Below, piece after piece: positions 907 to 32,600 of a DNA stretch of 64,000 nucleotides. Each line of letters opens with the position of its first letter. Positions within the stretch are counted from its first letter, which is position 1. Source of the DNA: Antedon mediterranea (lineage: Eukaryota; Animalia; Echinodermata); NCBI RefSeq assembly GCF_964355755.1, contig NC_092673.1:19155648-19219647 (forward strand). Direction: 5' to 3'. The translations under genes and the position numbers were made by a program. The notes under the pieces were generated by a model. The model saw only the letters and a list, made by a program, of their open reading frames with translations. It had not been told where the DNA came from and ran no database searches.

Positions 907-2672
907 CTTGTTCTGATCGATGCTTTCGTTTAATTTTCTTTGGGGATTTTTTATCACCTAAATGTGGATAAATTTGTAATACATTCAATGATACAAACAG
1001 GCCTATGTTTAAAGTAATTATTAATTAATAATTATAAAATCTCTTTTGCAAAAAATACATGTTAAAACAGATATGATAACAGTGTTCTTAAGGCCAATTT
1101 ACACAGACAAGCGGTAACGGTACAGTAAGTGGAAAACCATGTAGCTTGTCCATATAGAATCTGTATCTATCCTGAGTGGAAACCGCCCGTCCGTGTTGTG
1201 TGTAAATGGTCATAAAGAGTATCATAGATTCTATATTTTTTATTACCGTTACCGCTTGTCTGTGTAAATCGGCCTTAAAGCTGATAAAACTATTTATGTG
1301 TCCATAGATTTCCTTTGGGTATTTGTTGAGTTGTGATACAACAATATTGTTTAAATAATTGTGAGCAGTTCATTTTTTTTCATTATTGCCTACAGAACAT
1401 AGTGTTTATGAAATATAATAACATAATTTTTTGGTGATTGAGTAAAGGGTGCCTGAAATTCCTGATTTTAATTTCAAATATCAAAAATGTTTAAAAACGT
1501 AAAATTAACTTTTATATACAGTATTGCTTTTAAAAATAAATTTTAAAATTTGTATCGAATATAATTGAATAAATTAGAATTGTTGTACTGTACTGAAGTA
1601 AATAATTTTTGTTTAAAATAATTTGAGATTCTAATACTGAATAGTTCATAACAGTTTGTGTGTATTGATATATTACTATCTACATCATTACCAAAATAAA
1701 CATAACATACCTGGATTTGAACTTGCTGTCTCACCTTTAACAAAAAAAAAACCAATATTTCAATAAATGCTAGACAAATTACAGATTCTTCCTGGTAACA
1801 CTATAGCTATACTAGTGCAAAAGGATCAATGCTTATTTAAAAACGACAACAACATGAACTTTCAATTGGGAACAGTTAGCATATATATACTTACAAAACA
1901 CTTTCACTGGAGGAATATCATTTGACTCTTGTGAGAGTAAAAAGTTTGCCTTTAGAAGATTTGTTGATGTATTATTTCTGAAAAAATTAAATGTCCTTGA
2001 TGGGCTTTCACTCCATAGGTATTCAGCAGTGATAATCTAAAAATAAGAATATTTTTAGAAAGAAAAAGTACATATTACAGCTCGAAAGCAGAAAAGTATA
2101 AATAGTATGTTACCTAAATTATTGCTATTTTATTGTACTTGGTAGTTTTAGTGGCAATCAATCTTTGATCATACACTCATGAACAAGGTATGGATTCGAA
2201 GATAAGCCGTACAATTTAGACCAGATAGCGAGTTTGTCAAATGTTGCTTACAGAACAGTAGACACTTTGGCAATTGTGGGAAAGAAACAAAGAAAGACCG
2301 TTTTGTTTGTAAAGCAGAATCAAATCAGTCGTAGCTGACTGGATAACTACTGTAGGAGATCAATTGGATATAGCGGGAGATATTTTTCATTTATCTTTTA
2401 AACTACAGTATTAGTTTTACTGCAAGCATCTGTTTAATACATATTCTTGAGCCTCAAAAGCTTATACAAATATTATGATATCACAAATTGTGAAAAAACG
2501 TTTTTAGATTTAATTTAATAAAACAGAATGGACATACTTCTTTTTCATCTTCTACTTGCCATTCTTGGTTTGGAATCGCAACACTGATTCTAATGTCTTT
2601 ATACAAAGAAAGAATATTGTCAGGTGGTTGTAAAAGTTGCTCACCACATTGTTCGTGCTCTTTTTGTATCTT
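907..2672 (-). CDS. Module 2 UPA-like exons (2538-2672, 1895-2036), 24-nt micro-exon (1711-1734) and basic exon (907-957, GDKKSPKKIKRKHRSEQ)
   Basis: The 135- and 142-nt exons have the same lengths and phases as in module 1; canonical borders. Confidence 0.75.
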
Positions 2673-8600: not shown

Positions 8601-11600
8601 TATCAGTACCATGCCATCTGTTGTAATTAATACATGAACAGTAACTAAAATAATATGTAACCATTTAAAAAGATATTTACGCTATAATGAGTGTGTGGAT
8701 GGGACTCAAACCTCTCTAGACTACTGATCTCAGTGGTCTGGAGGTATATACGCAATGCTAGTAATCTGGAGGTCATGGGTTTGAGTCCAATCTGTGAAAT
8801 ACTTTTAAATTTGTTCGCAAAGTGTTCTCATTGAACTGAGTATACAGTGCAATTACGTCAGAATAAGACAAAACATCTGACCAACTAAATTATTCTCTTA
8901 ATCTTTCAACTCATTGAAAATGTTTTGTGCCAAATTTTGAACCATGAGTGAGAAACTTATAATCATAGCAGTACATCTAAGGACAATTTAAGCTATTGAA
9001 GTTGCACGCAATTATAAGAATTTGTATATTATATAATATATGATAAAATAAACGAATGAAATTCTTACTACAAGTCCACTACTGAAATACCATTTTAAAC
9101 ACAATATGTTACATTGAACCATACAACTCCTTATACGATTCTTAAACTCACCAATCACTGGTTTAAGCTTTGTTTTCTGTTCTTCAACCATTAGTTTCTC
9201 AAAGTGTTCACTAGCAAGACTTGGTAAATCTAAAAAATGTAACATACAAAATCTTTTACACATATTTTTCATAAAAAGAAATATTAAAAGACACAACTTG
9301 GCAAAAATTGTTAATGTTCATAATGCTACCATATAATAATAATTTCTCTATTTTTATACTGGTGTAGGTTACAAAGGCTGGTGAGGCTATGTCTGAATAT
9401 AGCCCGAGTGTCATTATCATATCTTGATCATCATCATGATATCATATTTTTATATATAACCTTTATCTACAATAATAGGCATTGTTACCCTCACTTATCA
9501 TCTAATCAATGAGATTTTATCTATGATTTTTATATAATATATATATATGTCTATTTTAAAAACAAGATATATATGAAATTTGTCTAATTTATATTTACCG
9601 TACTGACGCGGGTATAAGCCCACCCCCCTCAAACATGAAATCACGTCAAGTTTGGGGGGTGGGCTTATACCCGAGGATCCAAAAATGCAGATCGTCAAAA
9701 ACAGCACATGTACACTGTGTATTCCACCATGCGAGCGAACGCCCTCACGTGTACGACGTTGCCTCTAAACACGAGGTGTAGAGTGCCAGAAAATTAAGCT
9801 TATAGTTCGTGTAATTTATCGTAGAATATCTTATTTTAAACATCAATTGAACAAGAATTTATCAAGCAGAAAAGCAAGTATACAATGTTCGTTAAATAGA
9901 AATGTACCAAAGAAATTTAATAAGCTTGTTTATGGCAGCCGATACCAAATAGTGGTTTTCCGTTTTGGCGACTTGTAGCGTATCGTGTGTGAAGCGATCT
10001 TCGACCGCGATGGAGTGTTAACAAAACAGGACCGCTAGGCCTCATATGGCCTAGCGTGCGTATATTAGCCTAGCTTGGTTATGATCAAAAAGGTAGGTGT
10101 ATTCGGTGTATGGACGTCGCCAAATACAAAATAATGTATTACGACACACACTGTAGATCTTCGAATTAATGGGTGGGCTTATACCCGAGTGCCTCATTTT
10201 TCATGAAAATTAGTCAAAAGTCGGGGGTGGGCTTATACCCGAGTATGGGCTTATACCCACGTCAGTATATTTTAACATGGCACCTGTTCACACAATGATG
10301 TAAATTTATATTTTTATTTGTTTCAGCAAAATGTGGAGTGCTGAGGAGGGCCAAAGCAGAGAAAACACTACCACCAGGGAATAAAATTGTTCACTGTCTA
10401 CATTTAACTATGCTATGCTATATTTATTGTTGAAATCATTGTTTTCAGATAGATTTGTGAAACATTTTAATAACTTTCTATATCTATAATCAGCTTTAGA
10501 AATTCAACTACAGTACAACAAAACTACACACTTTATGTTTGTCTTAATAATCAGCATTATATTCTTTGTGTTAAAATATGATACTAATTATTAATGTTAG
10601 AGTAATATCATTCTCATTAACACCAACTTCTTTGTCATTATCATCTTGTTGATATCTTTATTTTAATTTTTATAATTCTTTGTTGTTGTTTGTTGTTTTG
10701 TCTTGTTGAGGGCCCATAATGGTAAATCCGTTTTTAAGAATATTCAAATAAAGAAAGGAGAAAGGACCCAAATGACACATTGATACATTTATAGAGACAA
10801 ATACAATAAAAGTAGTTTCTCCGTTGGTTAAGAGTTGGAAACTTGATAGTATTCCTGTTAATACGTTGTTAAAGATATGATTTTTGTTTTTTTTTTATTG
10901 GTAATCCGCACAGATTGAAAAAAAATGGATCGAATTTCTGTTATGGCTGTACTTGTCTTTACGACGCCTGAGGGAATAGAAACTTGTGGAACAGAGATTG
11001 GAATGTTCCATTTATCGCAGATCAATACATTTGTATAAACGTATATTAAATCTATCAAAATAGTATTTTTTAAAGAAACACTTCAACATTATGATGCTGT
11101 ACTCGAGCTGTTCAACCGGTTTTCAGCTATTAAAAACAATTATTGAGGAGGAGATAGGAAAATGCGAAGCATCCTCGTATTATTGTGTGTGGGTATTTAT
11201 TAAGATTGACATCTATTATACAGTGTATACCACAACCACGAAACACCCCTATTTGGGGCAAATCGTTGAACCTGAATTTGTTTTAATTGTCAATAACTAA
11301 TTATTTAACTCAATTTAATTAGTAAACAGGGTTACATCAGATGGTTAAAATGAGTACCGAAAGTACAAACCAACTTTATATACCATCGAGTATAAATTCT
11401 GGAAATAAACCGCGATTTATCGAATTTTGCCCTTACGTAAATTTATATATAGGTATAGGATCTTGCTAACGCGAATACAATAGCCGGTATCACAATCCGA
11501 TCAAAGATCCCTCTGCATATAATGTCATTAACCACATTGTTACATAATAATAAAGACATTACTTACTTTTTATCTAGATTTCATTTTAAATTATGTGTAT

Positions 11601-14600
11601 AATCTATACACTAAAAAATAAAATTGAACAAACAATATGGATAATAAAAAAAATCTTATTTCGTTTCCCAATGTGAGACTCGATCTCGGTACCTTGAATG
11701 CCATAGACACGAGCACAGACCACCGAGCCATACACAACTGACTAAAAGTTGTAGAAAGATTCCTCCGTGTATTTACTATGCAGCAACCACTTTGGCGCAG
11801 ATAGATTATTACATACCGCAATGAATTATAATTTTTTACTATGATGACATCTTTAAAAATGTTAAAAAATGATGCACTGTCAAACTATATACTTTTAACT
11901 TTAATATATGAACTTTTATTTTGAAAGAAGAAAGTTAAAGTTTGTTATTTCGGCCTAAGAAAATGTCATAATTTTTTGATTGTCGAAATAAATTTTTTTA
12001 AATTTAAAATGCAATTAATGACAACTTTTGTACTCTTAATTTCATAATAAATCATACATGATACATACACTTCAAGAAAATGAAATAAAAAATACGTGTT
12101 CCCGAGATTTCTGACGATCTATATTATTTTTAAAATTTAGCATATTTTCACCATTTTGTTAACTTACACGTGCGTAGCCTGTCACTCTTGACGTGCTCGT
12201 ATAACGCAAATTCGAGTTGAAAAGTGAATAAAATATGATGATATTATTAAAGAAAGGTTGTACGTGCGTGATCGCATGATAATGCATATAACCTAAAAAT
12301 CAACAATCAAGCAAAAATCAAGCAAGCATGCCACATAAATCTGCAAACTATAGCTTCATTCCATTATTACAGTATTTTAAATAGAAACAATCAACTGTTT
12401 GTTTTATTTATGATAATCTCTCCATTTGTTATTTGTTATCAGTTGCACACTTTTCGCCTTTTTACAGTACCGCTCAGAAATGTTTTTTTAATAACATTAG
12501 CGTCTAATTCTCTCTTTACTGAAATCCCATTTTAATCACAATTCTGTTAAATTATAATATAGATACAATCATAAAACATACAGCAGCTCTTATTCTTAAA
12601 CTCACCACTCTCTGGCTTAAGAAGTTTTGTTTTCTGTTTGTCACTTGTATGTTTCTGAAATTGTGTTTGAAATTGCTCATCAACAGTACTTGTTAAATCT
12701 AAAAAAATGCACAAAACAAAAATATGACATATTATATATTTTCATAAAAAACACTATATTAAAAGTCATAGCTTTTTTGTTTCAATGGTATAAGGTTATA
12801 TAAAGGCTCTGTGTGATACAAAGCCTTACAAACACTTGTGGGTGATTGTGTACAAGCAATCATTCATTCTGAATATACTATAATAATAATAATGTATATT
12901 TTTAACTACAATGTATACAGTTAACAACTACAGTTATTAATTATGTCCTAAAAAATGTGTGGAACTCAAACTCATCCAAACATATAGGCGTTATGCAACA
13001 TTTTTTGACAGAGATCCTGAATCTAAATCGTTTCTAGCAACATACGGTTGATTAGGATGGTTTCACTGTCTGTGTAAAGTGAAAATAAAGTAATCCTAAA
13101 ATGAATAACTGGTATGTTATTGACCACCTATCGTAAGTTTTTAATATGCCTTGAACTTTTTAAATGTTTTTATTTATATTCTGTTTTATGACCAGTAACC
13201 AATTTTGTTTTTATATCTGTGTGAAAACACAATAAAGATAACTTGAACTTGAGCCCACCATGGTTTGGGCTGAATTTTGCCAATATAGACCTGGAATTGC
13301 ATTTTTAAAGGCCTACAATAAGGGCACTGTTCTTTATACACTTGGTAGAGCTTGGTTATGCTTTGTGGGACTTGGTGTTTAGAATAACACATGTATGATG
13401 CTTAATTTTACATACAGAAAAATAGTATTCTTAAGCTGGCTTAAAAATGTGTGAAGAAAATTCATTCATTGTGGAAACAAAAAATGGGATTAACAAGAAA
13501 ATGTTTTATTTTTATATTCAATATTTATCGCCTCCTATCGTAAATTGTTTGCCTCGAATGCGAATGTGGGAAGGAGGAGTTTGAATTTGTCTATTGGTTT
13601 TACCCATAGTAAAAAAATTAGTAGATTTAAGTAGACTTAAGTAGAAATAGCTCTATTTTTAGTAGTTTTTTAGTAGACCTTTTTATCTCGCCTAATAAGG
13701 ATTTTAACTCAATGAGTCAACGATGGAACGACTACTTCCCAGCTATAAAATAGATAGTTGATTAATATTTAACTGGCTATTATCAGTTTCTTTATAGTCT
13801 ATTGATAGGTCATTGGTAGTCTTGTATAGCTATAATAAGGAGACAGTAGATAGATAGATATGATACTCATAGATTTCTAATAGCTATCTGGTAGTCCATA
13901 TCTATCTATTGTATAAAATAGATAGCTTATTAACAGTTACTGGCTATTATCAGTTTGTTTATGTCTATTAATAGGTTGCTGGTAGCCCATTGTATAGCTA
14001 TTATAAGTAGACAATAGATAGATGCATACAACTGTGTTACTCACAGATTGAAAATAGTGAAAAATCTATCTAACACTATTAGTGGGGGTTTTGAATTATG
14101 CTAATGAGGTAAAACCTATTAGGAACTATCTAAAATCTACCTAAATCTACTTATTAGTAGGTGTTTAATAGGTAATAGAGCTATATCTATTAAGGGGATA
14201 ACTTTTAAGGCGAATAGATATAGAGATATATCTACTAAGAACTTTTAATTAAGCGCCATCATTTACGGCAGTAACCTGGTACGCACGGCGCGCTGAAAAT
14301 CCGGTGATTCAGCTCCTCGAAGAAGACAAATTATTATTTAAAATGTTTGAAGGAAATTCATCCATTGTGGAAACAAAAACTGGGATTTAACAAGAAAATT
14401 AGATTTTTATATTCAATATTTATCTCCTCCTATCGTAAATTGTTTGCCTTGAATGCGAATACCAATTGTACATAGCATTATATATAAAATACATTACATT
14501 AAAAAAAAAATAATCTACATTTTACATTTATGTGCAATTAATAAAGTTCAAATATTCCTTAACAATGCATATCCCCCGTCCGATTATTGTAACTAGTTTA

Positions 14601-17600
14601 AAGTAAAGCCTCCTATCAAAAGCCCCTTGAGGTTTATTGAAGGTCCCTTTCATCTTAAAATCATCATCATCATGATTAAAATCTCTTTATTTTTGTTATG
14701 TGTACTGTTTTGATGTATTGAATAAAGAGATTGATTTGATTTGAAAAATGATTTATTTAATATTTTTATTTCAAAGGAATTTTAAAGTTTGCGTTTTTGT
14801 GTTATTTTTATCGTATTAATAGCAAAATAATTTACATCTTGCAACATATCACAACTTCCATGTATACTACTATCCCACTGAATTATTTAATCTATAATAA
14901 ACCTGTGAATGATATATCATAAATGTTAATTTTCTTTATCTGGACATTCTTCTTCACTTGATGAGAAATCAAATCTTTATCGTTTGCAATGAAACTAGTT
15001 GATCCTAAAATTTCAATAATTAAAACTTCAATTACCTTCTAAGAAGTTTAAAATTTCAGTTTTTCTTTGCTCCTCTATCCACCTGTTACTTTCTAAAAGA
15101 GAGACAAGTGTATTTCCATCCTATTAAAAAAATGGGTTTAGTTATTAGTAGTTTTGAGAAATTATTGATATACAATATAACACACTTTAATTGCGCATCA
15201 CATACATACAGTATTATGTCATGGCTCAAACATTTACCATCTAGAGATTGGATGAAAGAGCATCACGTGATAACACGTAGATTTACTATTTTTAACATTG
15301 GTTGTAAATTAGGACGTGAATAGAAATTAATATTTGCTAATAAATGACATCAACTTGTACAGTGCGCCACCTATAACTCCTGTATCCAAACCAAAACTTA
15401 AGCGCTGCCGTTTATAGTCTACCGCCTTCAACATTGAAAGATGGAGGAGAGAGAGAAAGAGATAAAAGTTTAATAAAAGTTTACTTTGGAACAGTAGGTA
15501 GATGTGTTAAAATGTTTGAGCCATAATATAAAACAACTAGAAAGCCACTCCGAGAGTGCATACCTCCGCCTACTGTAAAATTCTCCTACATAAGATTTCT
15601 CCGGTAAAAAAAAAAAAATATGTATATTTGTGTGTGTCTTAATGCTGTTTGTGATTTAGGCTAATTTCACTACAAGCATGTGTATGCGAGTTTGGTGTAA
15701 TGGTTATGTAACAAGCCTTTGAATTAACAATAGCTTCAGTTGACTAACAATAGAACAGCAACACGAAAATCAAACGAGTGAATTTGAAAAGAAAATGGGT
15801 TTTTTAAACTACTGGCATAAAAAAACGTGCACATTAAATCAAATTATGTTTTAAAATTACAAATCACGAATTATAACTCTTGCCTCTTGTACAAAAATGA
15901 AGTTTTTTGGACAAGTAGTTCTCGAGAAAATGCAATTTCAGTATACTTGTTACTTTAAGACTGCTCGCCGGCTTTTGAAAAATGTTGTCCTATCTTTTAA
16001 CACTAGCAGGTTTAAAAAAGTATACTAAAAAGTGGTCCAGAATTGGGACAATGGTCCCAAAATTTAATGGAATGGTCCTTGACTACATATCTATCTGTAT
16101 ATTCATTTTGGTAAAGATCTTGTAATTACATTTTGAGTAATCCTGCTAACAAACAAACACACGCTACCGATTACATATACCTCCTTGGCGGAGGTAAACA
16201 AATAGTTTTACTATAAACTTTCAAAGCAAATAATATTTGGATACTATCCAGAAACAAATGAAATATCCCTGTATAATCCCTGTACATTACCTTCTTTGCA
16301 ATGTTGCTGGTGTATAATACTGACAACAGACATTATGTGAAATTGGGTTTTTTTGGTCAACCCAAACCACAGCAACAATTACTGCTAAATAATGTGGTAA
16401 ATAATCATAAATGTCGACTATTGATAAATGAAAACAAAATATAATATCTTACCATGGATCAAATGTAGTATAGTGTCATTAAAATCTACTTACTGTACAA
16501 TATCAATCACAAAATTTGAACATTAATAATTTAATACATATTTTATAAAATTGTACAAACAAATGTTTAGATGTTAAACATAATGTATGAGGCCAATAAG
16601 CAGTTAAATGAATTTACATATAAATTTAGGTAATGGGAAATTTCAGTAAATTAAGTGCAACTTCTAGAATTTTTACTCAATGGTAGAGAAAGTTGGTACA
16701 TCCTTTCAGTACTGATTTTTAACACCCAATGAAACCAATATCATAATTAAGATAAGTTAGATATTAACGATAACAAATTTAGTTTAAACCATTTGCCTCA
16801 ATGAAAATCATATCATATCATGAAGCCTGATACCATCCCATCATCAAATGTACCAAGACAGGAATTTGGTGAACAATACCATGCAATAAACAAAATTAAG
16901 GTAATTCTCAGGATGACAATTATATTTGACTACATAAATTCCATCATATCTGTATTCATTTGCTTTGTGTACAGTGCAATTTTCAGTTATTTACCAAAGT
17001 TCATGTATTCAAGAAACATCTATGAGCACTTACTAGTATATTATATTTTAACAAGAAATCATTTTTCCAAAAAAGTCATAAGATAAGAGATGGAACTTTT
17101 CTTAAAAGCATTCAGTTTGAAAAGAATAATTTCATATTACCTTTCTTTTTAAATTGCATTACTCAAACAATTTAGATTTTGAAAACTAACAAAACATTGT
17201 GTACATTTCTCTTCATTTTGTGGCAAAATGTTTGCACAAAAAGATCCTAGGTTGGAAAAAGATCTCCAGATGTAGTTTAAGGCCATGTTTATAATTAGCT
17301 GGATAGAATGACAGAAGCATTTTTTTAAGGTAAGGGAGGGAACAGGTTATTAATTAATAATTATTTTTTATTAAAATCAGATTCTATTAATTTTTTTAAC
17401 ATAAACATTTTTAGTTGTTTAGTAGTTGTCGCATTTTATTTCATATTTACAATTAATTAGACCATTGTCAATAATTGTTAATTAATGACTGAATATATAA
17501 AAAAAAATAGATTTTTTTGTTCATTAAGAAAATTAAAGATTTATGTTATATGATAGGTAACTGTAAACTTTAAATCAGTTATCATAAATCATATATAACT

Positions 17601-20600
17601 ATTTAGTTATTTTTTTATTTGGTTTGTTTTAATAAAATTTGATTTTTGTTAATGTGCTTACTTTTTTCTCTCATTAAATGGTTTACGTCAGCAGATCTAT
17701 ATGATGTTAGCCTATTACACTAGCAAATCCCTGTACATTACCTTATTTTGCAATGCTACTGGTGCCCCATGCTGAATGAGACACGTCACTATTTCTAAGG
17801 TAGGCACAGTATATCCACTCCACAGATATGAATGTAATGGAGTGTTACCATCCTGGAAAGGAATCATAATCATGAATGTTTATAAATACTGACAACAGAC
17901 ATTATGTGAAATTGTTTTTTTTGTGTAAATACAAACAACAACAATTACTGCTAAATAATGTGATAAAATCCTAATTATCATTATTGATAAATGAAAACAA
18001 AATAGAATATATTACCATGGATCAGATCTAGTAATTGTTAGCCTATTACTTAATGTAAGTAATCATTAAAATCTACTTACTGTACAATATCAATCACAAA
18101 ATGTAAACATTAATAAAATACATATTTCATAAAATTGTACAAACAAATGTTTAGATGTTAACAATATGAGACCAATAAGCAGTTTAATGAATTTACATAT
18201 AAATTTAGGTAATGGGAAATTTCAGTAAATTAAGTGCAACTTCTAGAATTTATACTCAATGGTAGAGAAAGTTTGTACATACTTCCGGTACTGATTTTTA
18301 ACACCTAATGAAAATCAGTGTACTATAAATGTACATAAATACAAAAAAACCAACACAAATACAAAAAAAATGCACAAAATTGCCCAAGAATACATGGTTT
18401 GATCGTCAATGCATAAAAAAGAAAATTATTATTCGTAGCATTCTTAATAAATATAGAAAATACAAAACTAACACCCTATTAAATGAATATCTGTTAAAGA
18501 AAAGGAGTTATAAAAAATTAATAAAATTAAAAAAAAATAAACATAAAAATTCATCACAACAAAAATTAATCAGGTTAATAAAGGAACATAACAGTACAAA
18601 ATTTTGGAAAAACCTTAAAACCAAACGACAACAAAACGTAACAAACATTACACTTAAAAAATGGCATGATTACTTCAAAACTATGTTCCAAAATCAAACA
18701 AATAATATACAAGAAATCAATATAGAAGACGATAACGATAACAATTGCGAACATAACGATTGTTACAATGAAGAAATCAGCCGGGAAGAGGTAATTTATG
18801 CAATTAAAGCACAGAAAAGGAGTAAAGCTCCAGGTATTGATGGATTCCCAATTGATTTTTTTACTTGTATCCCAAATGCTGCTATTAGCGCAATTACGAA
18901 CATTTTTAATAGTATTTTTACCTCTGGAAATTTTCCCCAACAATGGGCAACAAGCATTATTATTCCTATATTTCAAAAGCGTAAAAGAGATCAACCAGCA
19001 AATTATAGAGGCGTATCCTTAATATCCACTTTAGGCAAGGTGTTTTTAAACATTATAAGCAATAGATTAAGCAAATGGACAGAAGAAAATGAAATATTAC
19101 ATCAAGAACAGGGAAGGTTTAGAAAAGATTGTCGTACTATTGATAAAATATTTATTTTAGACACAATTGTTAACAAATATCTCTCAAAAAAACGAGGAAC
19201 TGTGTACATGGCGTTTATAGATTTAAAACGCGCTTTCGATTCTATTAGACACGATTTCCTTATAAGTAAACTAAGAAAATCTGGTATAAAAGGTAAAATA
19301 ATCAAAGTTATAAAAACAATGTATAGTAAACTAAAAGGGCATGTAAAGGTTGGCAACAAAATTGGAGAATCCTTTAAATGTGAAGTAGGAATACAACAAG
19401 GGTCACCTTTATCTTCATTATTATTTAATATTTTTATTAATGATATAACTGATTTATTACATACTGCTGAAAATCGAAACAAAATAAAAATTAATAACAT
19501 AAATATTAATCACCTACTGTATGCAGATGATCTAGTTTTAATCAGTGATACAGTGTACTCATTACAAGATCTTTTAAATAAATTAGCATATAACTATTGT
19601 AATAATAGGTGGGGATTGGTAGTTAACATTGACAAAAGTAAAATAATAGTATTTTAAAAAAATGGAAAACTTAAGAACTACGAAAAGTGGAATTAACTTG
19701 GTAAAGAAATTGAAATAGTAAAATCTCTTAAATATCTTGGAGTCACTTTCGATTGTTCAGGAATTTGGGAAAAGGCCAGAGAACAAAATAATACACAGGC
19801 TAATAAAGCACTTTTCTCACTCAAAAATATAGTATATCAGAAATATGGACATTTACTAGTGAATATTTGGAACTACTTATTTGATGTTAAAATAAACCCA
19901 ATTATACTGTATGGTAGTGAAATATGGGGAAAACTAAACAACAACAAAATTGATGATATTCAAAATAATTTCTGTAGATATGTTTTAGGGGTCGGGAAAT
20001 CAGCCACAAATGTTTCAATTAGAGGAGAATGTAGACGATTCTCTTTATCAATCGAAGGTGTACTCAATGTTATCCGTTATTGGGTAAGACTAGTAAATAT
20101 GAACGAGGACAGATATGCGAAGAAATGTTATAAATCTCAACTTCATAAAGCGCAAAATAATAGTAATTGTTGGGTAAGCGATGTAAAACATATGTTATGC
20201 TCTATTGGTCATGGAAACATATGGTTTTCACAAAATAATGTCCTTGATAAATTTCATATAATTAATAAAAATAAAAGAAAGGCTAACCGATATGGAACGC
20301 CAATCCTTTCATGAAAGCATAAATATTTCTTCAAAATTAAGATATTATAAAATGTTCAAAAACAATTTCGGAGTAGATGGATACTTACTACAGACCCTTG
20401 ATACTAGATATAAGCGAGCTTTAAGTCAACTAAGACTGGGCACACTTCAACTAGAGGTAGAAAAGGGAATATGGAAAAGAATAGAGCGCAACAATAGGTT
20501 ATGTAAAATATGTGATATAAATGAAGTTGAAGGTGAATATCATTTTGTTACAGTTTGCTCTCGTTACAAGGAAATCAGAAAAAAATTTATACCTTCTTTA

Positions 20601-23600
20601 TTTTTTGAAAATCCAAATACTTTTAAATTCTGCCGTTTAATTTCATCACAGGATCCAATAATTATTGATAATCTATCTAAATATATTTATCATGCTTATA
20701 AGTTAAGATATATGTTTTGCTTAGAGAACGAAATTAATTAATTCATTTATCCTGCGACCATAAATTGCTTTATTTTTCAATGTAATTATTATTTTATTAA
20801 TTACTAGGGGCCAGAGGCCTAAAGTAAATAAAGTAAGGCGATAAGCCTGAATGAATGAATGAATGAATGAATGAATGAATGAATGAATGAATGAATATTG
20901 ACGATCAAAACAAATTTATCATTTGCCTCGATGAAGATCAAAAAATGTTTGCACAAAAAGATCCTAGGTTGGAAAAGGATCTCCAGATGTAGTTTAAGGC
21001 CATGTTTATAATTAGCTAGATAGACTGACAGAAGCATTTTTTTTGTAAGATAAGGGAAGGAGCACATTATTAATTAATAATCATTATTAATTAAAAATCA
21101 TTTTTTTATTAAAATCAGATTCTATTAATTTTTGTTTAGTAGTTGTCCCATTTTATTTCATATTTACAATTAATTAGACCATTATCAATAATTGTTAATT
21201 AATAGCTGAATATACAAAAAAAATAGATTTTATTGTTCATTAAGAAAATTAAAGATTTATGTTATATGATAGGTATAATATATATAAATATATAACTATT
21301 TAGTTATTTTTTTATTTTGTTTGTTTTAATAAAATTTGATTGTTGTTTATAATGTACTTACTTTTTTCTCTCATTAAATGGTCTACTTCAGCAGATCTAT
21401 ATAATGTTAGCTTATTACACTAGCAAATCCCTGTACATTTACCTTATTTTGCAATGCTACTGGTGCCCCATGCTGAATGAGACACGTCACTATTTCTAAG
21501 GTAGGTGTATATTCATTCCTCAGATAGTCATGTAATATAGTGTTACCATCCTAGAAAGGAATCATAATGAAGTTTATAAATACTGACAACAGACATTATG
21601 TGAAATTGGGTTTTTTTTTTGTAAATACAAACAACAATTACTGCTAAATAATGTGATAAAATATTAATTATCATTATTGATAAATGAAAACAAAATATAA
21701 TATATTACCATGGATCAGATCTAGTGATTGTTAGCCTATTACTTAATGTAAGTAATCATTAAAATCTGAGAAAGTTGGTAAATACTTTCAGTACTGATTT
21801 TTAACACACAATGAAACCAATATCATAATTAAGCTAAGTTAGATATTAACGATAACAAATTTAGTTTAAACCATTTGCCTTAATGAAAATCATATCATGA
21901 AGTCTGATACCATCCCATAATAAAATGTACCAAGACAGGAATTTGGTGAACAATACCATGTAATAAACAAAATTAAGGTAATTCTCCGGATGACAATTAT
22001 ATTTGACTACATAAATTCCAACATATCTGTATTCATTTGCTTTGTGTACAGTGCGACTTAAGACAATTTCAGTTATTTACCAAGGTTCATGTATTCGAGA
22101 ACCATCTGTGGGCACTTACTAGTATATCACATTTTAACTGGCAACTTTATAGAATCATTTTTTCCAAAAAGTCATAAGATAAGATACGGCACTGTTTGAA
22201 AAGAATAATTTCATGTTAAATTTCTTTTTCCAATTGCATTGCTCAAACATTTTTAGATTTTGGAAACCACTATAAACTAAACATTATTTACATTTCTATT
22301 CCATTTGTGGCAAAATGTTTGCAAAAAAAAATGCTGGAAAAGGATCTCTTTAAGGCCATATTCAAACTGTAATTAGCTGGATATACTGACAGAAGTATTT
22401 TTTGTAAGGTAAGGGAAGGAGCAGGTTATTAACACTAACTAATTCTTTTTTATTAAAATCAGATTCTATTAATTTTGTTAACAATAACACAAACATTTTT
22501 GTTTGCTATTTAATTATTTGTCAACATACATTTTATTTCATATTTATAATTAATTAGACCATTTTCAATTGTTATTTACTTTACAGCTACATATTGAGCA
22601 ATATATATTTATTTTATGGTAAAAAGTATTTAAACAAAATTATACTGATTCACCTGAATATAAAAAATTACAAGTAGATTGTTTTTGTTCATTAAGAAAA
22701 AAATAAATGTTATTTGATGGATAACTGTATACTTTAAATCAGTTATCATAAATCATATATAACTGTTTAGTTATTACAGTATTTTAATTTGATTTTTTGA
22801 TTTTTGTTAATGTGCTTACTTTTTTCTCTCATTGAATGGTTTACTTCAGCAGATCTATATAATGTTAGCTTATTACACTAGCAAATCCCTGTACATTACC
22901 TTATTTTGCCATGCTACTGGTGCCCCATGCTGAATGAGACAAGTCACTATTTCTAAGGTAGGAGCAGTATCTCTATGAGTATATCCACCCCACAGATACA
23001 TATGTAATGGAGTGTTACCATCCTGGAAAGGAATCATAATCATGAAGTTTATAAATACTGACAACAGACATTATGTGAAATTGTTTGTTTTTTGTCAATA
23101 CAAACAACAACAATTGCTGCTAAATATTGTGGTAAATAATCATAATTATCATTATTAATAAATGAGTAGAACAAAATAGAATGGTTTACCACAGCATATC
23201 TATAGAATGTTAGCCTATTACACTAGCAAATCCCTGTACATTTACCTTATTTTGCAATGCTACTGGTGCCCCATGCTGAATGAGACAAGTCACTATTTCT
23301 AAGGTAGGTACAGTATATCCACTCCTCAGATATGAATGTAATGGAGTGTTACCATACTGGAAAGGAATCACAATGAAGTTTATAAATACTGACAACAGAC
23401 ATTATGTGAAATTGTTTGTTTTTTGCTGCTGTAAATAACAACAATTGCTGCTAAATAATGTGATAAAATCCTAATTATCATTATTAATAAATGAAAACAA
23501 AATATAATATATTACCATGGATCAGATCTAGTAATCGTTAGCCTATTACTTAATGTAAGTAATCATTAAAATCTACTTACTGTACAATATCAATCACAAA

Positions 23601-26600
23601 ATGTAAACATTAATAAAATACATATTTCATAAAATTGTACAAACAAATGTTTAGATGTTAACAATATGAGACCAATAAGCAGTTTAATGAATTTACATAT
23701 AAATTTAGGTAATGGGAAATTTCAGTAAATTAGGTGCAACTTCTAGAATTTATACTCAATGGTAGAGAAAGTTTGTACATACTTCCGGTACTGATTTTTA
23801 ACACCTAATGAAAATCAGTGTACTATAAATGTACATAAATACAAAAAAACAAACACAAATACAAAAAAATTGCACAAAATTGCCCAAGAATACATGGTTT
23901 GATCGTCAATGCATAACAACAACAAATTATTATTCGTAGCATTCTTAATAAATATAGAAAATACAAAACTAACACCCTATTAAATGAATATCTGTTAAAG
24001 AAAAGGAGTTATAAAAAATTAATAAAATTTAAAAAAAAATAAACATAAAAATTCATCACAACAAAAATTAATCAGGTTAATAAAGGAACATAACAGTACA
24101 AAATTTTGGAAAAACCTTAAATCCAAACGACAACAAAATGTGACAAACATTACACTTAAAAAATGGCATGATTACTTCAAAACAATGTTCCAAAATCAAA
24201 CAAATAATATACAAGAAATCAATATAGAAGACGATAACGATAACAATTGCGAACATAACGATTGTTACAATGAAGAAATCAGCCGGGAAGAGGTAATTTA
24301 TGCAATTAAAGTTAACATTGACAAAAGTAAAATAATAGTATTTTTAAAAAATGGAAAACTTAAGAACTACGAAAAGTGGAATTAACTTGGTAAAGAAATT
24401 GAAATAGTAAAATCTCTTAATTATCTTGGAGTCACTTTCGATTGTTCAGGAATTTGGGAAAAGGCCAGAGAACAAAATAATACACAGGCTAATAAAGCAC
24501 TTTTCTCACTCAAAAATATAGTATATCAGAAATATGGACATTTACTAGTGAATATTTGGAACTACTTATTTGATGTTAAAATAAACCCAATTATACTGTA
24601 TGGTAGTGAAATATTGGGAAAACTAAACAACAACAAAATTGATGATATTCAAAATAATTTCTGTAGATATGTTTTAGGGGTCGGGAAATCAGCCACAAAT
24701 GTTTCAATTAGAGGCGAATGTAGACGATTCTCTTTATCAATCGAAGGTGTACTCAATGTTATCCGTTATTGGGTAAGACTAGTAAATATGAACGAGGACA
24801 GATATGTGAAGAAATGTTATAAATCTCAACTTCATAAAGCGCAAAATAATAGTAATTGTTGGGTAAGCGATGTAAAACATATGTTATGCTCTATTGGTCA
24901 TGGAAACATATGGTTTTCACAAAATAATGTCCTTGATAAATTTCATATAATTAATGAAATAAAAGAAAGGCTAACCGATATGGAACGCCAATCCTTTCAT
25001 GAAAGCATAAATATTTCTTCAAAATTAAGATATTATAAAATGTTCAAAAACAATTTCGGAGTAGATGGATACTTACTACAGACCCTTGATACTAGATATA
25101 AGCGAGCTTTAAGTCAACTAAGACTGGGCACACTTCAACTAGAGGTAGAAAAGGGAATATGGAAAAGAATAGAGCGCAACAATAGGTTATGTAAAATATG
25201 TGATATAAATGAAGTTGAAGGTGAATATCATTTTGTTACAGTTTGCTCTCGTTACAAGGAAATCAGAAAAAAATTTATACCTTCTTTATTTTTTGAAAAT
25301 CCAAATACTTTTAAATTCTGCCGTTTAATTTCATCACAGGATCCAATAATTATTGATAATCTATCTAAATATATTTATCATGCTTATAAGTTAAGATATA
25401 TGTTTTGCTTAGAGAACGAAATTAATTAATTCATTTATCTTGTGACCATAAATTGCTTTATTTTTCAATGTAATTATTATTTTATTAATTACTAGGGGCC
25501 AGAGGCCTAAAGTAAATAAAGTCAGGCGATAAGCCTGAATGAATAAATGAATGAATGAATGAATATTGACGATCAAAACAAATTTATCATTTGCCTTGAT
25601 GAAGATCAAAAAATGTTTGCACAAAAAGATCCTAGGTTGGAAAAGGATCTCCAGATGTAGTTTAAGGCGATGTTTATAATTAGCTAGATAGACTGACAGA
25701 AGAATTTTTTTTGTAAGATAAAGGAAGGAGCACATTATTAATTAATAATCATTATTAATTAATAATCATTTTTTATTAAAATCAGATTCTATTAATTTTT
25801 GTTTAGTAGTTGTCCCATTTTATTTCATATTTACAATTAATTAGACCATTATCAATAATTGTTAATTAATAACTGAATATATAAAAAAAATAGATTTTAT
25901 TGTTCATTAAGAAAATTAAAGATTTATGTTATATGATAGGTAACTGTACACTTTAAATCAGATCATAAATCATATATAACTATTTAGTTATTTTTTTATT
26001 TGGTTTGTTTTAATAAAATTTGATTTTTGTTAATGTGCTTACTTTTTTCTCTCATTAAATGGTCTATTTCAGCAGATCTATATAATGTTAGCTTATTACA
26101 CTAGCAAATCCCTGTACATTTACCTTATTTTGCAATGCTACTGGTGCCCCATGCTGAATGAGACACGTCAGTATTTCTAAGGTAGGTGTTGTATATTCAT
26201 TCCTCAGATATGAATGTAATAGAGTGTCACCATACTGGAAAGGAATCATAATGAAGTTTATAAATACTGACAATAGAAATTATGTAAAATTGGTTTTCTG
26301 TTGTTAATACAAACAACAACAATTACTGCTAAATAATGTGATAAAATCCTAATTATCATTATTGATAAATGAAAACAAAATATAATATCTTACCATGGAT
26401 CAGATGTAGTGATTGTTAGCCTATTACTTAATGTAAGTAATCATTAAAATCTACTTACTGTACAATATCAATCACAAAATTTGAATATTAATAAAATACA
26501 TATTTTATAAAATTGTACAAACAAATGTTTAGATGTTAAACATAATGTATGAGGCCAATAAGCAGTTAAATGAATTTACATATAAATTTAGGTAATGGGA

Positions 26601-29600
26601 AATTTCAGTAAATTAAGTGCAACTTCTAGAATTTTTACTCAATGGTAGAGAAAGTTGGTACATCCTTTTAGTACTGATTTTTAACACCCAATGAAACCAA
26701 TGTCATAATTAAGCTAATTTAGATATTAACGATAACAAATTTAGTTTAAACAATATTGCCTCAATGAAAATCATATCATATCATGAAGACTAATATCATG
26801 CCATCATCAAATATACCAAGACAGGAATTTGGTGAACAATACCATGCAATAAACAAAATTAAGGTAATTCTCAGGATGACAATTATATTTGAATACATAA
26901 ATTCTAACATATCTGTATTCATTTGCTTTGTGTACAGTGCAATTTTCAGTTATTTACCAAAGTTCATGTATTCAAGAAGCATCTGTGAGCACTTACTAGT
27001 ATATTATATTTTAACGAGAATTAATTTTTTCAACAAAGTCATAAGATAAAAGACGGAACTTTTCTTAAAAGCATTCAGTTTGAAAAGAATAATTTCATAT
27101 TACCTTTCTTTTTTAAATTGCATTACTCAAACAATTTAGATTTTGAAAACTAACAAAACATTGTGTACATTTCTCTTCATTTTGTGGCAAATGTTTGCAC
27201 AAAAAGATCCTAGGTTGGAAAAGGATTTCTTTAAGGCCATGTTCATAATTAGCTGGATAGACTGACAGAAGCATTTTTTGTAAGGTAAGGGAGGGAGCAG
27301 GTTTTTAATTAATAATCATTTTTTATTAAAATCAGATTCTATTAATTTTTTTAACATAAACATTTTTAGTTGTTTACTAGTTGTCCCATTCTATTTCATA
27401 TTTACAATTAATTAGACCATTGTCAATAACTGTTAATTAATAACTGAATATATATAAAAAAATAGATTTTTTTGTTCATTAAGAAAATTAAAGATTGATG
27501 TTATGTGATAGGTAACTGTACACTTTAAATCAGTTATCATAAATCATATATAACTATTTGGTTTGTTTTAATCAAATTTGATTTTTGTTAATGTGCTTAC
27601 TTTTTTCTCTCATTAAATGGTTTACTTCAGCAGATCTATAGAAAGTTAGCTAATTACACTAGCAAATCCCTGTACATTTACCTTATTTTGCAATGCTAAT
27701 GGTGCCCCATGCTGAATGAGACACGTCACTATTTCTAAGGTAGGTGCAGTACTCCTCAAATATGAATGTAATGGAGTGTCACCATACTGGAAAGGAATCA
27801 TAATCATGAATGTTTATAAATACTGACAACAGACATTATGTGAAATTGGTTTTTTTTTTGTTAATATTGTACAAACAACAATTATTGCTAAATAATGTGA
27901 TAAAATTCTAATTATCATTATTGATAAATGAAAACAAAATATAATATATTACCATGGATCAGATGTAGTAATTGTTAGCCCATTACTTAATGTAAGTAAT
28001 CATTAAAATCTACTTACTGTACAATATCAATCACAAAATTTGAACATTAATAAAATACATATTTCATAAAATTGTACAAACAAATGTTTAGATGTTAACA
28101 ATATGAGACCAATAAGCAGTTAAATGAATTTATATATAAATTTAGGTAATGGGAAATTTCAGTAAATTAAGTGCAACTTCTAGAATTTATACTCAATGGT
28201 AGAGAAAGTTGGTACATACTTTCGGTACTGATTTTTAACACCCAATGAAACCAATATCATTTAAGTTAAGTTAGATATTAACGATAACAAATTTAGTTTA
28301 AACCATTTGCCTCAATGAAAATCATATCATATCATGAAGCCTGATACCATCCCATCATCAAATGTACCAAGACAGGAATTTGGTGAACAATACCATGTAA
28401 TAAACAAAATGAAGGTAATTCTCAGGATGACAATTATATTTGACTACATAAATTCCATCATATCTGTATTCATTTGCTTTTTGTACAGTGCAATTTTCAG
28501 TTATTTACCAAAGTTTATGTATTCAAAAAGCATCTGTGAGCACTTACTAGTATATTATATTTTAACAAGAAATAATTTTTCCAAAAAAGTCATAAGATAA
28601 AGAGACGGAACTTTTCTTAAAAGCATTCAGTTTGAAAAGAATAATTTCATATTACCTTTCTTTTTAAATTGCATTACTCAAACAATTTAGATTTTGAAAA
28701 CTAACAAAACATTGTGTACATTTCTCTTCATTTTGTGGCAAAATGTTTGCACAAAAAGATCCTAGGTTGGAAAAGGATCTCCAGATGTAGTTTAAGGCCA
28801 TGTTTATAATTAGCTGGATAGAATGACAGAAGCATTTTTTTAAGGTAAGGGAGGGAGCAGGTTATTAATTAATAATTATTTTTTATTAAAATCAGATTCT
28901 ATTAATTTTTTTAACATAAACATTTTTAGTTGTTTAGTAGTTGTCGCATTTTATTTCATATTTACAATTAATTAGACCATTGTCAATAATTGTTAATTAA
29001 TGACTGAATATATAAAAAAAAATAGATTTTTTTGTTCATTAAGAAAATTAAAGATTTATGTTATATGATAGGTAACTGTACACTTTAAATCAGTTATCAT
29101 AAATCATATATAACTATTTAGTTAATTTTTTATTTGGTTTGTTTTAATAAAATTTGATTTTTGTTAATGTGCTTACTTTTTTCTCTCATTAAATGGTTTA
29201 CTTCAGCAGATCTATAGAATGTTAGCCTATTACACTAGCAAATCCCTGTACATTTACCTTATTTTGCAATGCTACTGGTGCCCCATGCTGAATGAGACAC
29301 GTCACTATTTCTAAGGTAGGTGTATATCCACTCCACAGATATGAATGTAATGGAGTGTTACCATGCTGGAAGGGAATCATAATGAAGTTTATAAATACTG
29401 ACAACAGACATTATGTGAAATTGGGTTTTTTGACAATACAAACAACAACAATTAATGCTAAATAAAGTGGTAAATAATCATAATTAACATTATTAATAAA
29501 TGAGTAGAACAAAATAGAATGGTTTACCACAGCATATCTATAGAATGTTAGCCTATTACACTAGCAAATCCCTGTACATTACCATATTTTGCAATGCTAC

Positions 29601-32600
29601 TGGTGCCCCATGCTGAATGAGACACGTCACTATTTCTAAGGTAGGTTGTGTATATTCAATCCTCAGATATGAATGTAATGGAGTGTCACCATACTGGAAA
29701 GGAAAGCATTTTTTTGTAAGGTAAGAGAGGGAGCAGGTTATTAATTAATAATTATTTGTTATTAAAATCAGATTCTATTAATTTTGTGTAACATAAACCT
29801 TTTTTATTTGTTATTTTATTATTAATCAATGTAGTCCCATTTTATTTCATCTTTACAATTAATTAGACCATTGTCAATCATTGTTATCTTTACAGCTACA
29901 TATGAGCAATTTATATTTGTTTTACGGTCAAAAATAGTTAAACAAAATTATACCGATTCACCTGAATATAAAAAATTACAAGTACTGATTTTTAACACCC
30001 AATGAAACCAATATCATAATTAAGTTAAGTTAGATATTAACGATAACAAATTTAATTTAAACCATTTGCCTTGATGAAAATCATATCATATCATGAAGCC
30101 TGATACCATCCCATCATCAAATGTACCAAGACAGGAATTTGGTGAACAATACCATGTAATAAACAAAATGAAGGTAATTCTCAGGATGACAATTATATTT
30201 GACTACATAAATTCCAACATATCTGTATTTATTTGCTTTGTGTACAGTGCAACTTAGACAATTTTCAGTTATTTACTGAAGTTTATTTATTCGAGAACCA
30301 TTAATTACCAGTATATCAAATTTTAACTGGCAACTTTAATAGAATCATTTTTTCCAAAAAGTCATAAGATACAGTAAGATACGGCACTGTTTGAAAAGAA
30401 TAATTTCATATTAAATTTCTTTTTGAAATTGCATTGCTCAAACATTTTTACTAAACTAAACATTTTTCTTCCTTTTGTGCAAAATGTTTGTTTGGAAAAG
30501 GATCTCTTTAAACCCATCTGTATGTGATAAGACTGACAGAAGTATTTTGTTGTAAAGTAAGTAAAGGGCAGGAGCAGGTTATTAACAATTAATAATCCTT
30601 TTTTATTGAAATCAGATTCTATTTATAACATAAACATGTTTTAATTTGTTATTTTATTAATAGTCAATGTAGTTGTCCCATTTTATTTCGTATTTACAAT
30701 TAATTAGACCATTGTCAATCGTTATCTTTGAAGTACATACAGTAATAATGAGCACTTTATATTTGTTTTACGGTCATAAAAATGTAAACAACATTGTAGG
30801 TTTCTATTAGGCGTCATGTCCAAATGTTTCAAACTGACAAAGCGTGTTAATCGCGTTTTCTTTTGTTTTAGCGTTAGCGTGAAAATTCTAAAATCGTCAG
30901 ACCGTTTGGAAAATGGACAATATGCATAGCTTGTATAGTTCCGCCCACTAACATGCTTGACTGATTTTTACGAATCGTTTAACGTCGTTGCGAATCGCTT
31001 TGTGAACGTCGTTTAACGATGAGTCATCACACACAGGCCCAAACAATTCGTTTCAGTTTGTAGCTGAATTGTATTCCAGGGGTGCCGATCTCAAACATCA
31101 TTCTAAAATGTTTACAAGTTCGTAACCTCAATAAATAATTTAATATTAATAATAAACAGGGGCCTGGAATGTTTTTCTTTTACATAGCCAACTGAAAATA
31201 TCGTTAGGAAGTTCATACGATGAACTAAGCACCTGAGACAATAGCAACACGATGTGCCACGTAGTCTCACTTCTAAATGCATTAGCGAACGTCTACAGTA
31301 GCCGATCGATAAAAAAAAAGGTCTTCTAAAAATAGCAGCAGTGAATGCTCGGCCGACCGTCGGTGTTCGCGCGCTCATAGATTGCAGGCCGATAACATAA
31401 GTTAAACAAGTACCTAGATGTTGGTCACGCGATATCCTCTTTCTCCTCCTGTTCACAGCGCTCACATGTTTTTACTTCAAATTCTGCCGGTCGGTAATCT
31501 TATTTAGATCGTTGAAAAGATGACTGATCATTAATTTAATTCATTTAATGTTTGATTCTATTTTTGTGCTTTATTTTATTTTGTTTATCTTTATAAATTT
31601 GATTTATTTTAATTTAATTTTTATTGTTATATATGTCTCGTCATATTGTAATTTTGTGAGGGTCCCTAATGATCAGCTTCGGCTGGATGGACCACCCTCG
31701 TAAAATATTCTTGAAAATAAATATATAAATCATTGGCTATTTTTCCGTTGCACAAGGGCCTAGTTGTATTAATAATAATAATTATTATACTTATTAAACA
31801 AGGAATATATTGATTTTGTATTTATTTTGTGAAGGCTTTTGAACTTTGTCGTCGCTGTATTTTTAAATTTGTTAACTAAGTTAGAATTTACTAGCATAAT
31901 ATAATACTGTAAAACCAGACACTTTTGTGACATAAAACTTTCGCAAATTTGAAAAGTACAAGTAAATAACTGTATACTGTAAAAAAAAGATCGCGTTAAT
32001 CCATTGTGGATGCGATCTTCGTATATATCGAACATCCGTCGATCCAGAAACGATGCCCACAAAAAAGATGGTAAAACATTCATTCTAAATATGGTATCAA
32101 AACGTTCAAGTCGCTCAAAAAGAATGCCGACAGAAGACCGTAATTAATACAGACCTGGGTTTTTTGGCATGAAACGCGATACTACTCGATGTTTTACCTC
32201 AACCTCTAACATGATATTTTTTAACTCAGTACGTCCATTAGAGGGTGGTGGATGCTGTGCTGACGACAATAAAACAGTAATTAAGATCGTGTACCTGCAT
32301 TTCCTCTATTTATATCTAAACTGTTCCCAGACTCCGATCCACTCGCATGTTTTTCCCACTCCAAATTCTGGTCTGGCCTTTCTCTTTACACAATATATTA
32401 ATCATTTAAAAGGCCTATGACTGGTAAATCTTAACATGGAATATATATTTATTTTGCTTATATTTTGTTGGTGTTCTAGCCTAGGTGTTGTTATTTTTAT
32501 AATTCGCTAACCCAAGGTAGGATTAAATAATTTATAGTGTAGGCCGCCGACCTGAACTCTCTCTGTGTGAGCTGACTGAGGTCCACGGGCCCGATGTCGT

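Follow-up and report, generated by a model that had tools for sequence, protein, structure and literature searches.

In a feather-star array of one-repeat ankyrin exons, an inserted LINE probably dates only its own tract

The stretch of DNA analysed here (the window) covers 64 kb of contig NC_092673.1 from Antedon mediterranea and carries, on the minus strand, a gene with eight near-identical exons that encode one ankyrin repeat apiece (A1 to A8, Table 1). All eight match PF00023 (E 2e-6 to 2e-3), six of them above the 21.1-bit cut-off, and their repeats share the framework G-x-T-P-L-H ... L-E-I-V ... L-x-x-G-A, which can be aligned to DARPin repeats. Each exon is phase 0-0, is bounded by AG and GT and is free of stops, and the lengths of 105, 108, 111 or 123 nucleotides differ by in-frame changes in every case. 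A ninth unit has already been deleted to a remnant, and no plus-strand (inverted) exon copy was found in the 64-kb window. In contigs of run X5, a presumed RNA run that was used only for exon-exon joins, an exon end is joined to an exon start, 17851 being followed by 17742 after a single intervening letter. Thus, because these contigs hold head-to-tail exon joins, the family appears to be spliced at these exon ends, evidence that concerns the family and not specifically this locus.

The host gene is likely of an ANK-ZU5-ZU5-DED-like type. Its caps and linkers were located by tblastn of paralogs, the N-terminal cap being matched by P0010, P0011, P0016 and P0017 at 70-80%, and exon phases chain throughout, from this cap to position 907. 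A start-codon exon was not located. The source annotation has P0001 begin with the first ZU5 exon, leaving out the ankyrins; that the array is linked to ZU5 is likely, judging by exon phases and by paralogs P0012 and P0003. The two ZU5 domains are set apart by three exons, which we take to be the UPA-position domain. The DED match of P0001 scores 21.1 bits, under the Pfam cut-off of 35.9, and this DED-like end has no match in the 64-kb window. When 135 and 45 short ORFs were scanned against Pfam, no further domain exons came up, and a candidate exon at about 14902-15004 was dropped for want of homolog support.

Table 1. Features of the locus, in window positions
Feature	Position	Strand	Remarks
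N-terminal capping ankyrin exon	37486..37585	-	phase 2 to 0; AG/GT, stop-free
A1 ankyrin exon	29583..29693	-	phase 0-0, 37 codons; acceptor at deletion junction
A2 ankyrin exon	29258..29365	-	36 codons
A3 ankyrin exon	27682..27786	-	35 codons
A4 ankyrin exon	26124..26234	-	37 codons
A5 ankyrin exon	23246..23356	-	37 codons
A6 ankyrin exon	22900..23022	-	41 codons, in-frame loop insertion
A7 ankyrin exon	21443..21550	-	36 codons
A8 ankyrin exon	17742..17852	-	37 codons; Pfam Ank E=4e-6
Ninth-exon remnant (A9r), core deleted	16280..16316 (approximate)	-	sequence and flank homology
C-terminal capping ankyrin exon	15036..15120	-	phase 0 to 1; 89% to P0012 residues 76-103
Linker exon 1	12606..12698	-	phase 1-1; 73% to P0012 98-134, also in P0003
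Linker exon 2	9152..9229	-	phase 1-1; 77% to P0003 43-72
ZU5 exon, first	7718-8244	-	Pfam ZU5 E=1.9e-20
Exons after first ZU5 (block 4732..8244)	7223-7357, 4982-5123, 4732-4761	-	identical to P0001
ZU5 exon, second	3295-3824	-	Pfam ZU5 E=1.6e-18
Exons after second ZU5 (block 907..3824)	2538-2672, 1895-2036, 1711-1734, 907-957	-	
LINE copy 1	18328..20894	+	5′-truncated; RT domain; stops and frameshift; (TGAA)n tail
LINE copy 2	23828..25562	+	5′-truncated, antisense to gene; approximate ends, set by aligning it with copy 1
Low-divergence tract between the two LINE-bearing blocks	18037..20835	.	16 events/1984 columns vs 44/1265 outside

Canonical ankyrins and PIDD1 consist of a repeat domain, then ZU5 domains and a death-fold end; in canonical ankyrins of the ANK1-3 type, these are about 24 ancient repeats, adjacent ZU5-ZU5 and a death domain. 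The locus resembles them in this order, with a death-fold-like end, but its eight repeats are young and near-identical and have a longer helix1-helix2 loop, its two ZU5 modules are separate, a weakly matched DED-like end takes the place of the death domain, and the closest hits all come from Antedon. Given the number and youth of the repeats, the three exons between the ZU5s and the weak DED match, canonical ANK1-3-type identity was rejected. The same ankyrin repeat is employed by the ANK-ROC-COR-DED paralogs of Antedon. P0009, P0013, P0014 and P0017 (with P0012, partial) share with the locus the 35-41-residue repeat and the caps, and P0012 shares linker exon 1 as well. These proteins run on into ROC-COR, whereas the locus runs on into ZU5; a tblastn search with 18 family proteins, ankyrin-ROC proteins making up five of these, detected neither ROC nor COR in the window at E<=0.01.

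Two elements lie within the array, and both are LINEs (non-LTR retrotransposons), as shown by the RT domain, 5′ truncation, simple-repeat tail and likely short target duplication. Copy 1 matches Pfam RVT_1 (E=2.6e-34) and ends in (TGAA)n x12. An empty-site contig in run X8 points to a likely 3-bp target duplication and moves the probable 5′ end to 18328, instead of 18314. In copy 2, an internal deletion of 813 bp, absent from the original prediction, takes out most of the RT domain. Pairwise alignment bore out the 5′ junction that had been noticed in both copies, the 3′ (TGAA)n junction being likewise common, and the shared downstream intron deletion of about 400 bp, which measures about 414 bp and lies beside the LINE 3′ end. 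The estimate of about 20 differences in 1.7 kb was also close, with 19 substitutions in 1747 aligned sites (1.1%), to which 5 indels are added, among them a microsatellite that changed in length and the 813 bp lost from the right copy. Since the junctions are identical and an in-frame stop and the 414-bp deletion are shared, a single insertion was copied, and the same truncation point, tail, stop and adjacent deletion rule out independent insertions. The claim that flanking exons were duplicated along with the LINE is supported in a wider form: as some letters are exclusive to A7 and A4 (21383, 21516, 21537) or to A8 and A5 (17806), these exons were either co-copied with it or derive from the same sister units.

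The original prediction used the LINE as an internal clock, against which the neighbouring exons had diverged faster. Its exon counts were exact: A7 and A4 differ by a one-codon indel and by 7 substitutions, all replacement, that fall in 5 codons, and A8 and A5 by 4 substitutions (2 replacement, 2 silent). The two pairs thus differ at 11/219 sites (5.0%), and exons exceed the LINE in merged events (10/219 vs 18/1747, p=5e-4). Nevertheless, the introns beside the exons are also more diverged than the LINE core, as had been noted, and this is the larger effect: exon-proximal introns differ at 44/640 sites (6.9%; 16/184, 11/239 and 17/217 in three zones), and the zones touching the LINE at 1/273 and 5/305. 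Exons and exon-proximal introns do not differ from each other, either in substitutions (p=0.42) or in merged events (p=0.40, with 4.6 per 100 bp in exons, slightly above the 3.3 in introns). The low-divergence tract comes from a change-point fit that none of 300 permutations equalled. A LINE-free control, the A9r-A8 intron against A3-A2, has a middle that is not different from the LINE (13/900, p=0.45), in a 900-bp stretch chosen after the bins were seen, and an acceptor end that adjoins the dead exon remnant and is high (26/147); over their whole length, LINE-free intron pairs are 3.7-4.9% different. Divergence is therefore alike in exon and intron, around a low tract centred on the LINE, which is largely the result that the prediction had set against itself. 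The clock is not supported for the exons, as the introns beside them are equally diverged, and neither is exon-specific positive selection in these pairs, where the replacement share is neutral (9/11, p=0.51; A7/A4 alone, p=0.16). The LINE likely dates its own tract only, and not the neighbouring exons.

The other option offered at the outset, gene conversion from other units, fits the switching of the nearest relative near exons. In 60-bp windows close to the LINE, a unit is nearest to its LINE partner; in those closer to the exons, its nearest relative becomes A3, A4, A6, A2 or A8. Some flank patches have only 0-1 differences per 60 bp to non-partners, for instance A4 to A8 or A2 at 25928-26047 and A8 to A3 at 17862-17921. 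Similarly, the closest exon to A8 is A2 (3/108), not A5, and the closest to A4 is A1 (6/111), not A7; for 3 of the 4 A8/A5 differences, both letters are found in other units. Among 29 informative sites in 7 units, 123/406 pairs do not fit a single tree (Rm=10). A permutation test of neighbour incompatibility was not significant (p=0.16), so part of this may be recurrent mutation. In the three outer A7/A4-side zones, 24/31 substitutions are private to one copy within the window, which implies donors outside it or an older duplication. The letters of A7 private codon 8 are present, unphased, in contigs of 4/4 runs, and Ile at A7 codon 5 occurs also in paralog P0010. Patchwork exchange is thus the likely source of the contrast between LINE and exons.

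On balance, we favour a reading in which the array forms the variable, putative binding end of an ANK-ZU5-death-fold protein, its units are patched mutually and the LINE dates its own tract only. Unequal crossing-over and gene conversion would move patches of sequence between units. The exon and nearby intron, common to all units and to paralogous genes, would have many possible donors and could drift up to the array background of 4-9%, while the LINE, with a single partner, would stay at 1%. Perhaps selection also preserves the helix framework and reading frame and favours differing residues at those positions of the beta-turn and helix 1 that make up the predicted binding face. Reshuffling of exons might then alter what the protein binds, and this putative binding might be passed to a death-fold pathway via the ZU5 modules and the DED-like end.

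Variation at the predicted face, which was assigned by alignment to DARPins, bears on this last part. Although overall piN/piS among the eight exons is 1.07, piN is 0.218 at seven binding-face codons vs 0.026 in the framework and 0.047-0.112 in introns. The rate of events at the face exceeds that in introns by a factor of 2.3-2.7 (p=0.006-0.018; intron rates from 6-7 units, exon rates from 8 exons), and 9 fall in 15 nt of the face vs 3 in 21 nt of interleaved codons (p=0.02). Counting only the face positions that PMC4308713 lists leaves a weak excess (p=0.047-0.097, or 0.18 when set against interleaved codons). Codon 35 is invariant and codon 37 varies once. The same face positions are variable among 24 distinct paralog repeats, and in contigs of the sequencing runs codon 11 reads Arg and Gly in 4/4 runs and Trp in 3/4. 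The best-supported 40 of 66 variant rows, unphased and misaligned around loop indels, hold 32 replacement and 8 silent changes, a count given no weight here. The other sequence comparisons are suggestive of diversifying selection at the predicted face, visible only across all eight exons, and the clustering would, again suggestively, suit a variable sensor of immune type, a putative role.

A mosaic array might instead owe its amino-acid variety to relaxed constraint at surface residues in repeats of recent origin, or to decay of the gene, with neither diversifying selection nor a sensor role. This is possible, and it would suit the overall piN/piS, the weak p with the published site set, the exon already deleted and an annotation without ankyrins; new repeats generally evolve under relaxed selection (PMC5120217). 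Relaxation alone, however, cannot make face codons outpace introns, and the quiet interleaved codons, the in-frame length changes and the splicing of the family in run X5 also speak against it.

Rather unlikely, and compatible with the favoured patchwork reading instead of exclusive of it, is an older duplication (about 4-6%) in which a single later conversion or crossover between the two LINE-bearing blocks evened out the long middle around the LINE, so that the clock would fail in reverse, with the LINE younger than the exon split. The private differences in the outer A7/A4 zones, the exclusive letters surviving in both exon pairs, the one sharp low tract and the divergence of whole LINE-free intron pairs would all follow from it. 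By contrast, the near-identical patches shared with non-partners indicate that flanks were patched recently too, and the A7 codon 8 letters and codon 5 Ile occur elsewhere as well. A single recent duplication of exon, LINE and exon, followed by positive selection that split the exons faster than neutral DNA, is improbable: the excess of exons over LINE, the 7 replacement and no silent changes of A7/A4 and the exclusive letters tying the exon pairs agree with it, but the neutral introns beside the exons are as different, the replacement share is neutral, A8 and A4 are closer to A2 and A1 than to their partners, and a LINE-free intron pair has the same low middle. That the LINE blocks are two haplotypes misassembled in tandem is very improbable, since, although 1% falls inside the contig-vs-window range of run X1 (2/619 to 24/~1140), the two blocks are flanked by different neighbours at either end, 813 bp are missing from one LINE, and two short and three long introns supply further independent duplicated junctions in the array.

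Brown algae have candidate receptors with shuffled exons, of the LRR-ROCO and NB-ARC-TPR kinds (PMC3341825, PMC11378527). The locus shares with them one repeat per exon in a tandem array, with symmetric phase in all eight exons, what may be a dead exon in an intron (the deleted remnant), a variable binding face (predicted here), ROC-COR sister genes and recombination among repeats, as seen in the tract, the nearest-unit switching and the incompatible pairs, with the permutation test alone at p=0.16. It differs in using ankyrin, in an animal, instead of LRR or TPR, in having two ZU5 modules and a DED-like end in place of ROC-COR, in the lack of an inverted exon in the window and in selection that is only suggestive. 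Tentatively, feather stars might hold a natural DARPin-like library, in which one-repeat ankyrin exon cassettes, under diversifying selection, move about inside and among genes of the ANK-ROC-COR-DED and ANK-ZU5-DED types and vary at the binding-face positions where protein engineers randomise, an animal counterpart of the brown-algal ROCO receptors; we hold this to be doubtful. The HNWD allorecognition genes of Podospora (PMC2873952) have in common with the locus near-identical binding repeats, concerted evolution, rearrangement by deletion and duplication, and a place upstream or downstream of a cell-death output (putative here). They are WD40 repeats of a STAND NTPase whose function and mutability were shown, whereas both are putative for the locus.

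The case warns that an element inserted in a tandem array dates only its own tract. If the binding face is under diversifying selection, this would be an ankyrin-based, exon-modular recognition family tied to death-fold signalling in a deuterostome without adaptive immunity, and the array is small enough for tests by population long reads and binding assays. A literature search, with most subscription papers outside its scope, found no description of this crinoid ankyrin-exon family.

Within 17742-29693, the minus strand carries eight ankyrin exons of 105-123 bp, from A1 (29583-29693) down to A8 (17742-17852). Each is flanked by AG/GT at both ends, is in phase 0-0 and free of stops, and matches Pfam Ank. 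Accompanying exons are collected in the table. The linkers are followed by two ZU5 modules with exons that match the Antedon mediterranea protein P0001 exactly; caps, A1-A8, linkers and ZU5 exons chain in phase throughout. Because P0001 as annotated is without ankyrins, we infer the joining of array and ZU5 modules in one gene from these phases and from two paralogs, P0012 (ANK, C-cap and linker 1) and P0003 (linker 1, linker 2 and ZU5). At the end of P0001, there is a weak DED match (E=3.7e-4, under the Pfam cut-off).

Exons accompanying the eight intact ankyrin exons
Feature	Position	Strand	Basis
Ninth ankyrin exon, core deleted	near 16280-16316	-	sequence
N-cap exon	37486-37585	-	positioned from paralogous proteins
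C-cap exon	15036-15120	-	positioned from paralogous proteins
Linker exons, two	12606-12698; 9152-9229	-	positioned from paralogous proteins

Contigs assembled from sequencing run X5 lead from 17851 back into 17742 across a single letter, so splicing of the ankyrin-exon family uses the exon ends as defined; this holds at the family level, the contigs not being assignable to the locus. This run also has contigs whose free ends resemble cap exons. A profile of A1-A8 gave 18 matches, 8 of them Antedon proteins, five of which have a ROC domain, and a tblastn search of the window with 18 family proteins returned no ROC-COR match at E<=0.01. In the Antedon paralogs P0004, P0009, P0013 and P0017, the order of ANK, ROC-COR, DED and ZU5 modules differs, which suggests domain-level shuffling; P0017 has ROC-COR twice. 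A 127-bp tandem duplication at 2645-2900, its copies 98% alike, repeats the acceptor and the 5′ portion of exon 2538-2672 and may supply it with a second acceptor.

Two LINE copies interrupt the array, one in the A8/A7 intron (18328-20894) and one in the A5/A4 intron (23828-25562). The counts of the original prediction were reproduced: the LINEs, judged by eye to be about 1% apart, differ by 19 substitutions in 1747 aligned sites, A8 and A5 by 4 substitutions (2 silent), and A7 and A4 by 7 in 5 codons, plus a one-codon indel. Both blocks also share the junctions and the deletion described, the latter of about 414 bp; in the right-hand LINE, a further 813 bp are missing. In organism B, a contig (run X8, joint 18327 to 16790) has the LINE-bearing unit type in LINE-free, undeleted form; by comparison with it, the LINE would have inserted at about 18328 and duplicated 3 bp of its target. 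The long intron of the array includes an older dispersed repeat (16600-16800, 18194-18341; inverted copies at 6612-6795 and 11253-11451), and the LINE landed inside it.

The same prediction took the LINE as an internal clock against which neighbouring exons had diverged faster, and here it fails. On the A8 side, the blocks differ at 4/111 exon positions, 16/184 in the intron and 1/273 in the LINE-adjacent intron; after the LINE, the introns give 5/305 and 11/239, the A7 exon 7/108 and the intron beyond 17/217. A two-change-point fit delimits a low tract at 18037-20835, with 16 merged events in 1984 columns versus 44 in 1265 outside, and none of 300 permutations was as strong. Exons (p about 5e-4) and exon-proximal introns (p about 4e-4) both lie above the LINE and do not differ from each other (p=0.42; merged events, 10/219 vs 21/640, p=0.40). 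In addition, since a LINE-free intron pair has a similar profile (13/900 differences mid-intron, 26/147 at the acceptor end), the low middle needs no dead element. Positive selection on the LINE-flanking exon pairs is not borne out either, the replacement share being neutral (9/11; expectation 0.77, p=0.51).

What gained ground is the alternative of conversion from other units. In 60-bp windows, the LINE partner is nearest beside the LINE and other units are nearest closer to the exons; within the exons, a few letters exclusive to each LINE-flanking pair survive. The pattern is that expected of a block that was copied and then overwritten in short patches. Incompatible pairs of informative sites number 123/406 (Rm=10), and a permutation test on neighbour incompatibility gave p=0.16. 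An older duplication, its middle later homogenised, fits in part, because 24 of the 31 outer A7/A4 differences are private to one copy within the window. As for other blocks, the short introns 29366-29582 and 23023-23245 have one deletion junction in common, and thus A1-A2 and A5-A6 derive from a second duplicated block (exons 7% apart, introns 3.7%).

Across all 28 exon pairs, piN is 0.079 and piS 0.074. The seven codons that align with the binding face of ankyrins have a piN of 0.218; it is 0.108 in the helix1-helix2 loop, which also has in-frame indels, and 0.026 in the framework, with intron diversity at 0.047-0.112. Position 14 comes from the DARPin design. The other six (2, 3, 5, 10, 13, 33) are, under what is probably the same numbering convention, the ones picked for randomisation in PMC4308713, and DARPin randomised positions sit on the concave binding surface (PMC8229355). 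With multi-base codon changes counted as one event, 10 events fall in the 21 nt of the seven-codon face, a rate 2.3-2.7 times that of introns (p=0.006-0.018), intron counts being unmerged, which is conservative, but from 6-7 units, which is not. The six published positions only give 7 events in 18 nt (p=0.047-0.097 vs introns); against interleaved codons, the face gives p=0.02, or p=0.18 if restricted to the published positions. Ten related proteins (eight Antedon) supply 24 distinct repeats, in which variability is highest at the same face positions; at codon 11, Arg and Gly were seen in 4/4 runs from three organisms. These data suggest, but do not prove, diversifying selection across the ankyrin-exon family, and the signal does not belong to the two LINE-flanking pairs.

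The array combines modular exons with exchange tracts. Unequal crossing-over could alter repeat number and order with the frame intact, and conversion would mix residues among units; the framework would be kept and the binding face would vary; a putative binding signal might then pass via ZU5 and the DED-like domain. In the sections of PMC8195603 consulted, ZU5 autoproteolysis in PIDD is mentioned, and death-fold proteins whose ankyrin regions vary are described as having expanded in particular lineages of sessile marine invertebrates, the Antedon family not among them. [quoted passage not shown] It differs from ROCO genes in being without ROC-COR, and is not of the canonical ankyrin type. Fast divergence, under relaxed and positive selection, is general in young repeats (PMC5120217), which makes the Antedon pattern less surprising. 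Literature searches covering ankyrin and ROCO proteins of Antedon, feather stars, crinoids and echinoderms turned up no account of this exon family, though genome-paper supplements may list such genes.

Other elements also occupy the window. A 2.1-kb element (30809-32936) bounded by terminal inverted repeats lies in the intron that separates the N-cap exon from A1, where it splits remnants of array intron; its minus-strand ORFs had no Pfam match, and it is likely a DNA transposon. At 33170-37346, this intron also holds a 40-bp array and three arrays of a 71-bp satellite (about 19, 10 and 9 copies). Further satellites (89, 85, 31 and 18 bp) lie at 43626-48487, 37995-38487 and 49815-50342, the 18-bp array having several open frames. 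Finally, two long inverted-repeat pairs, 89-91% alike (54974-55542/58105-58714 and 11441-12263/53427-54267), are likely non-autonomous transposons.
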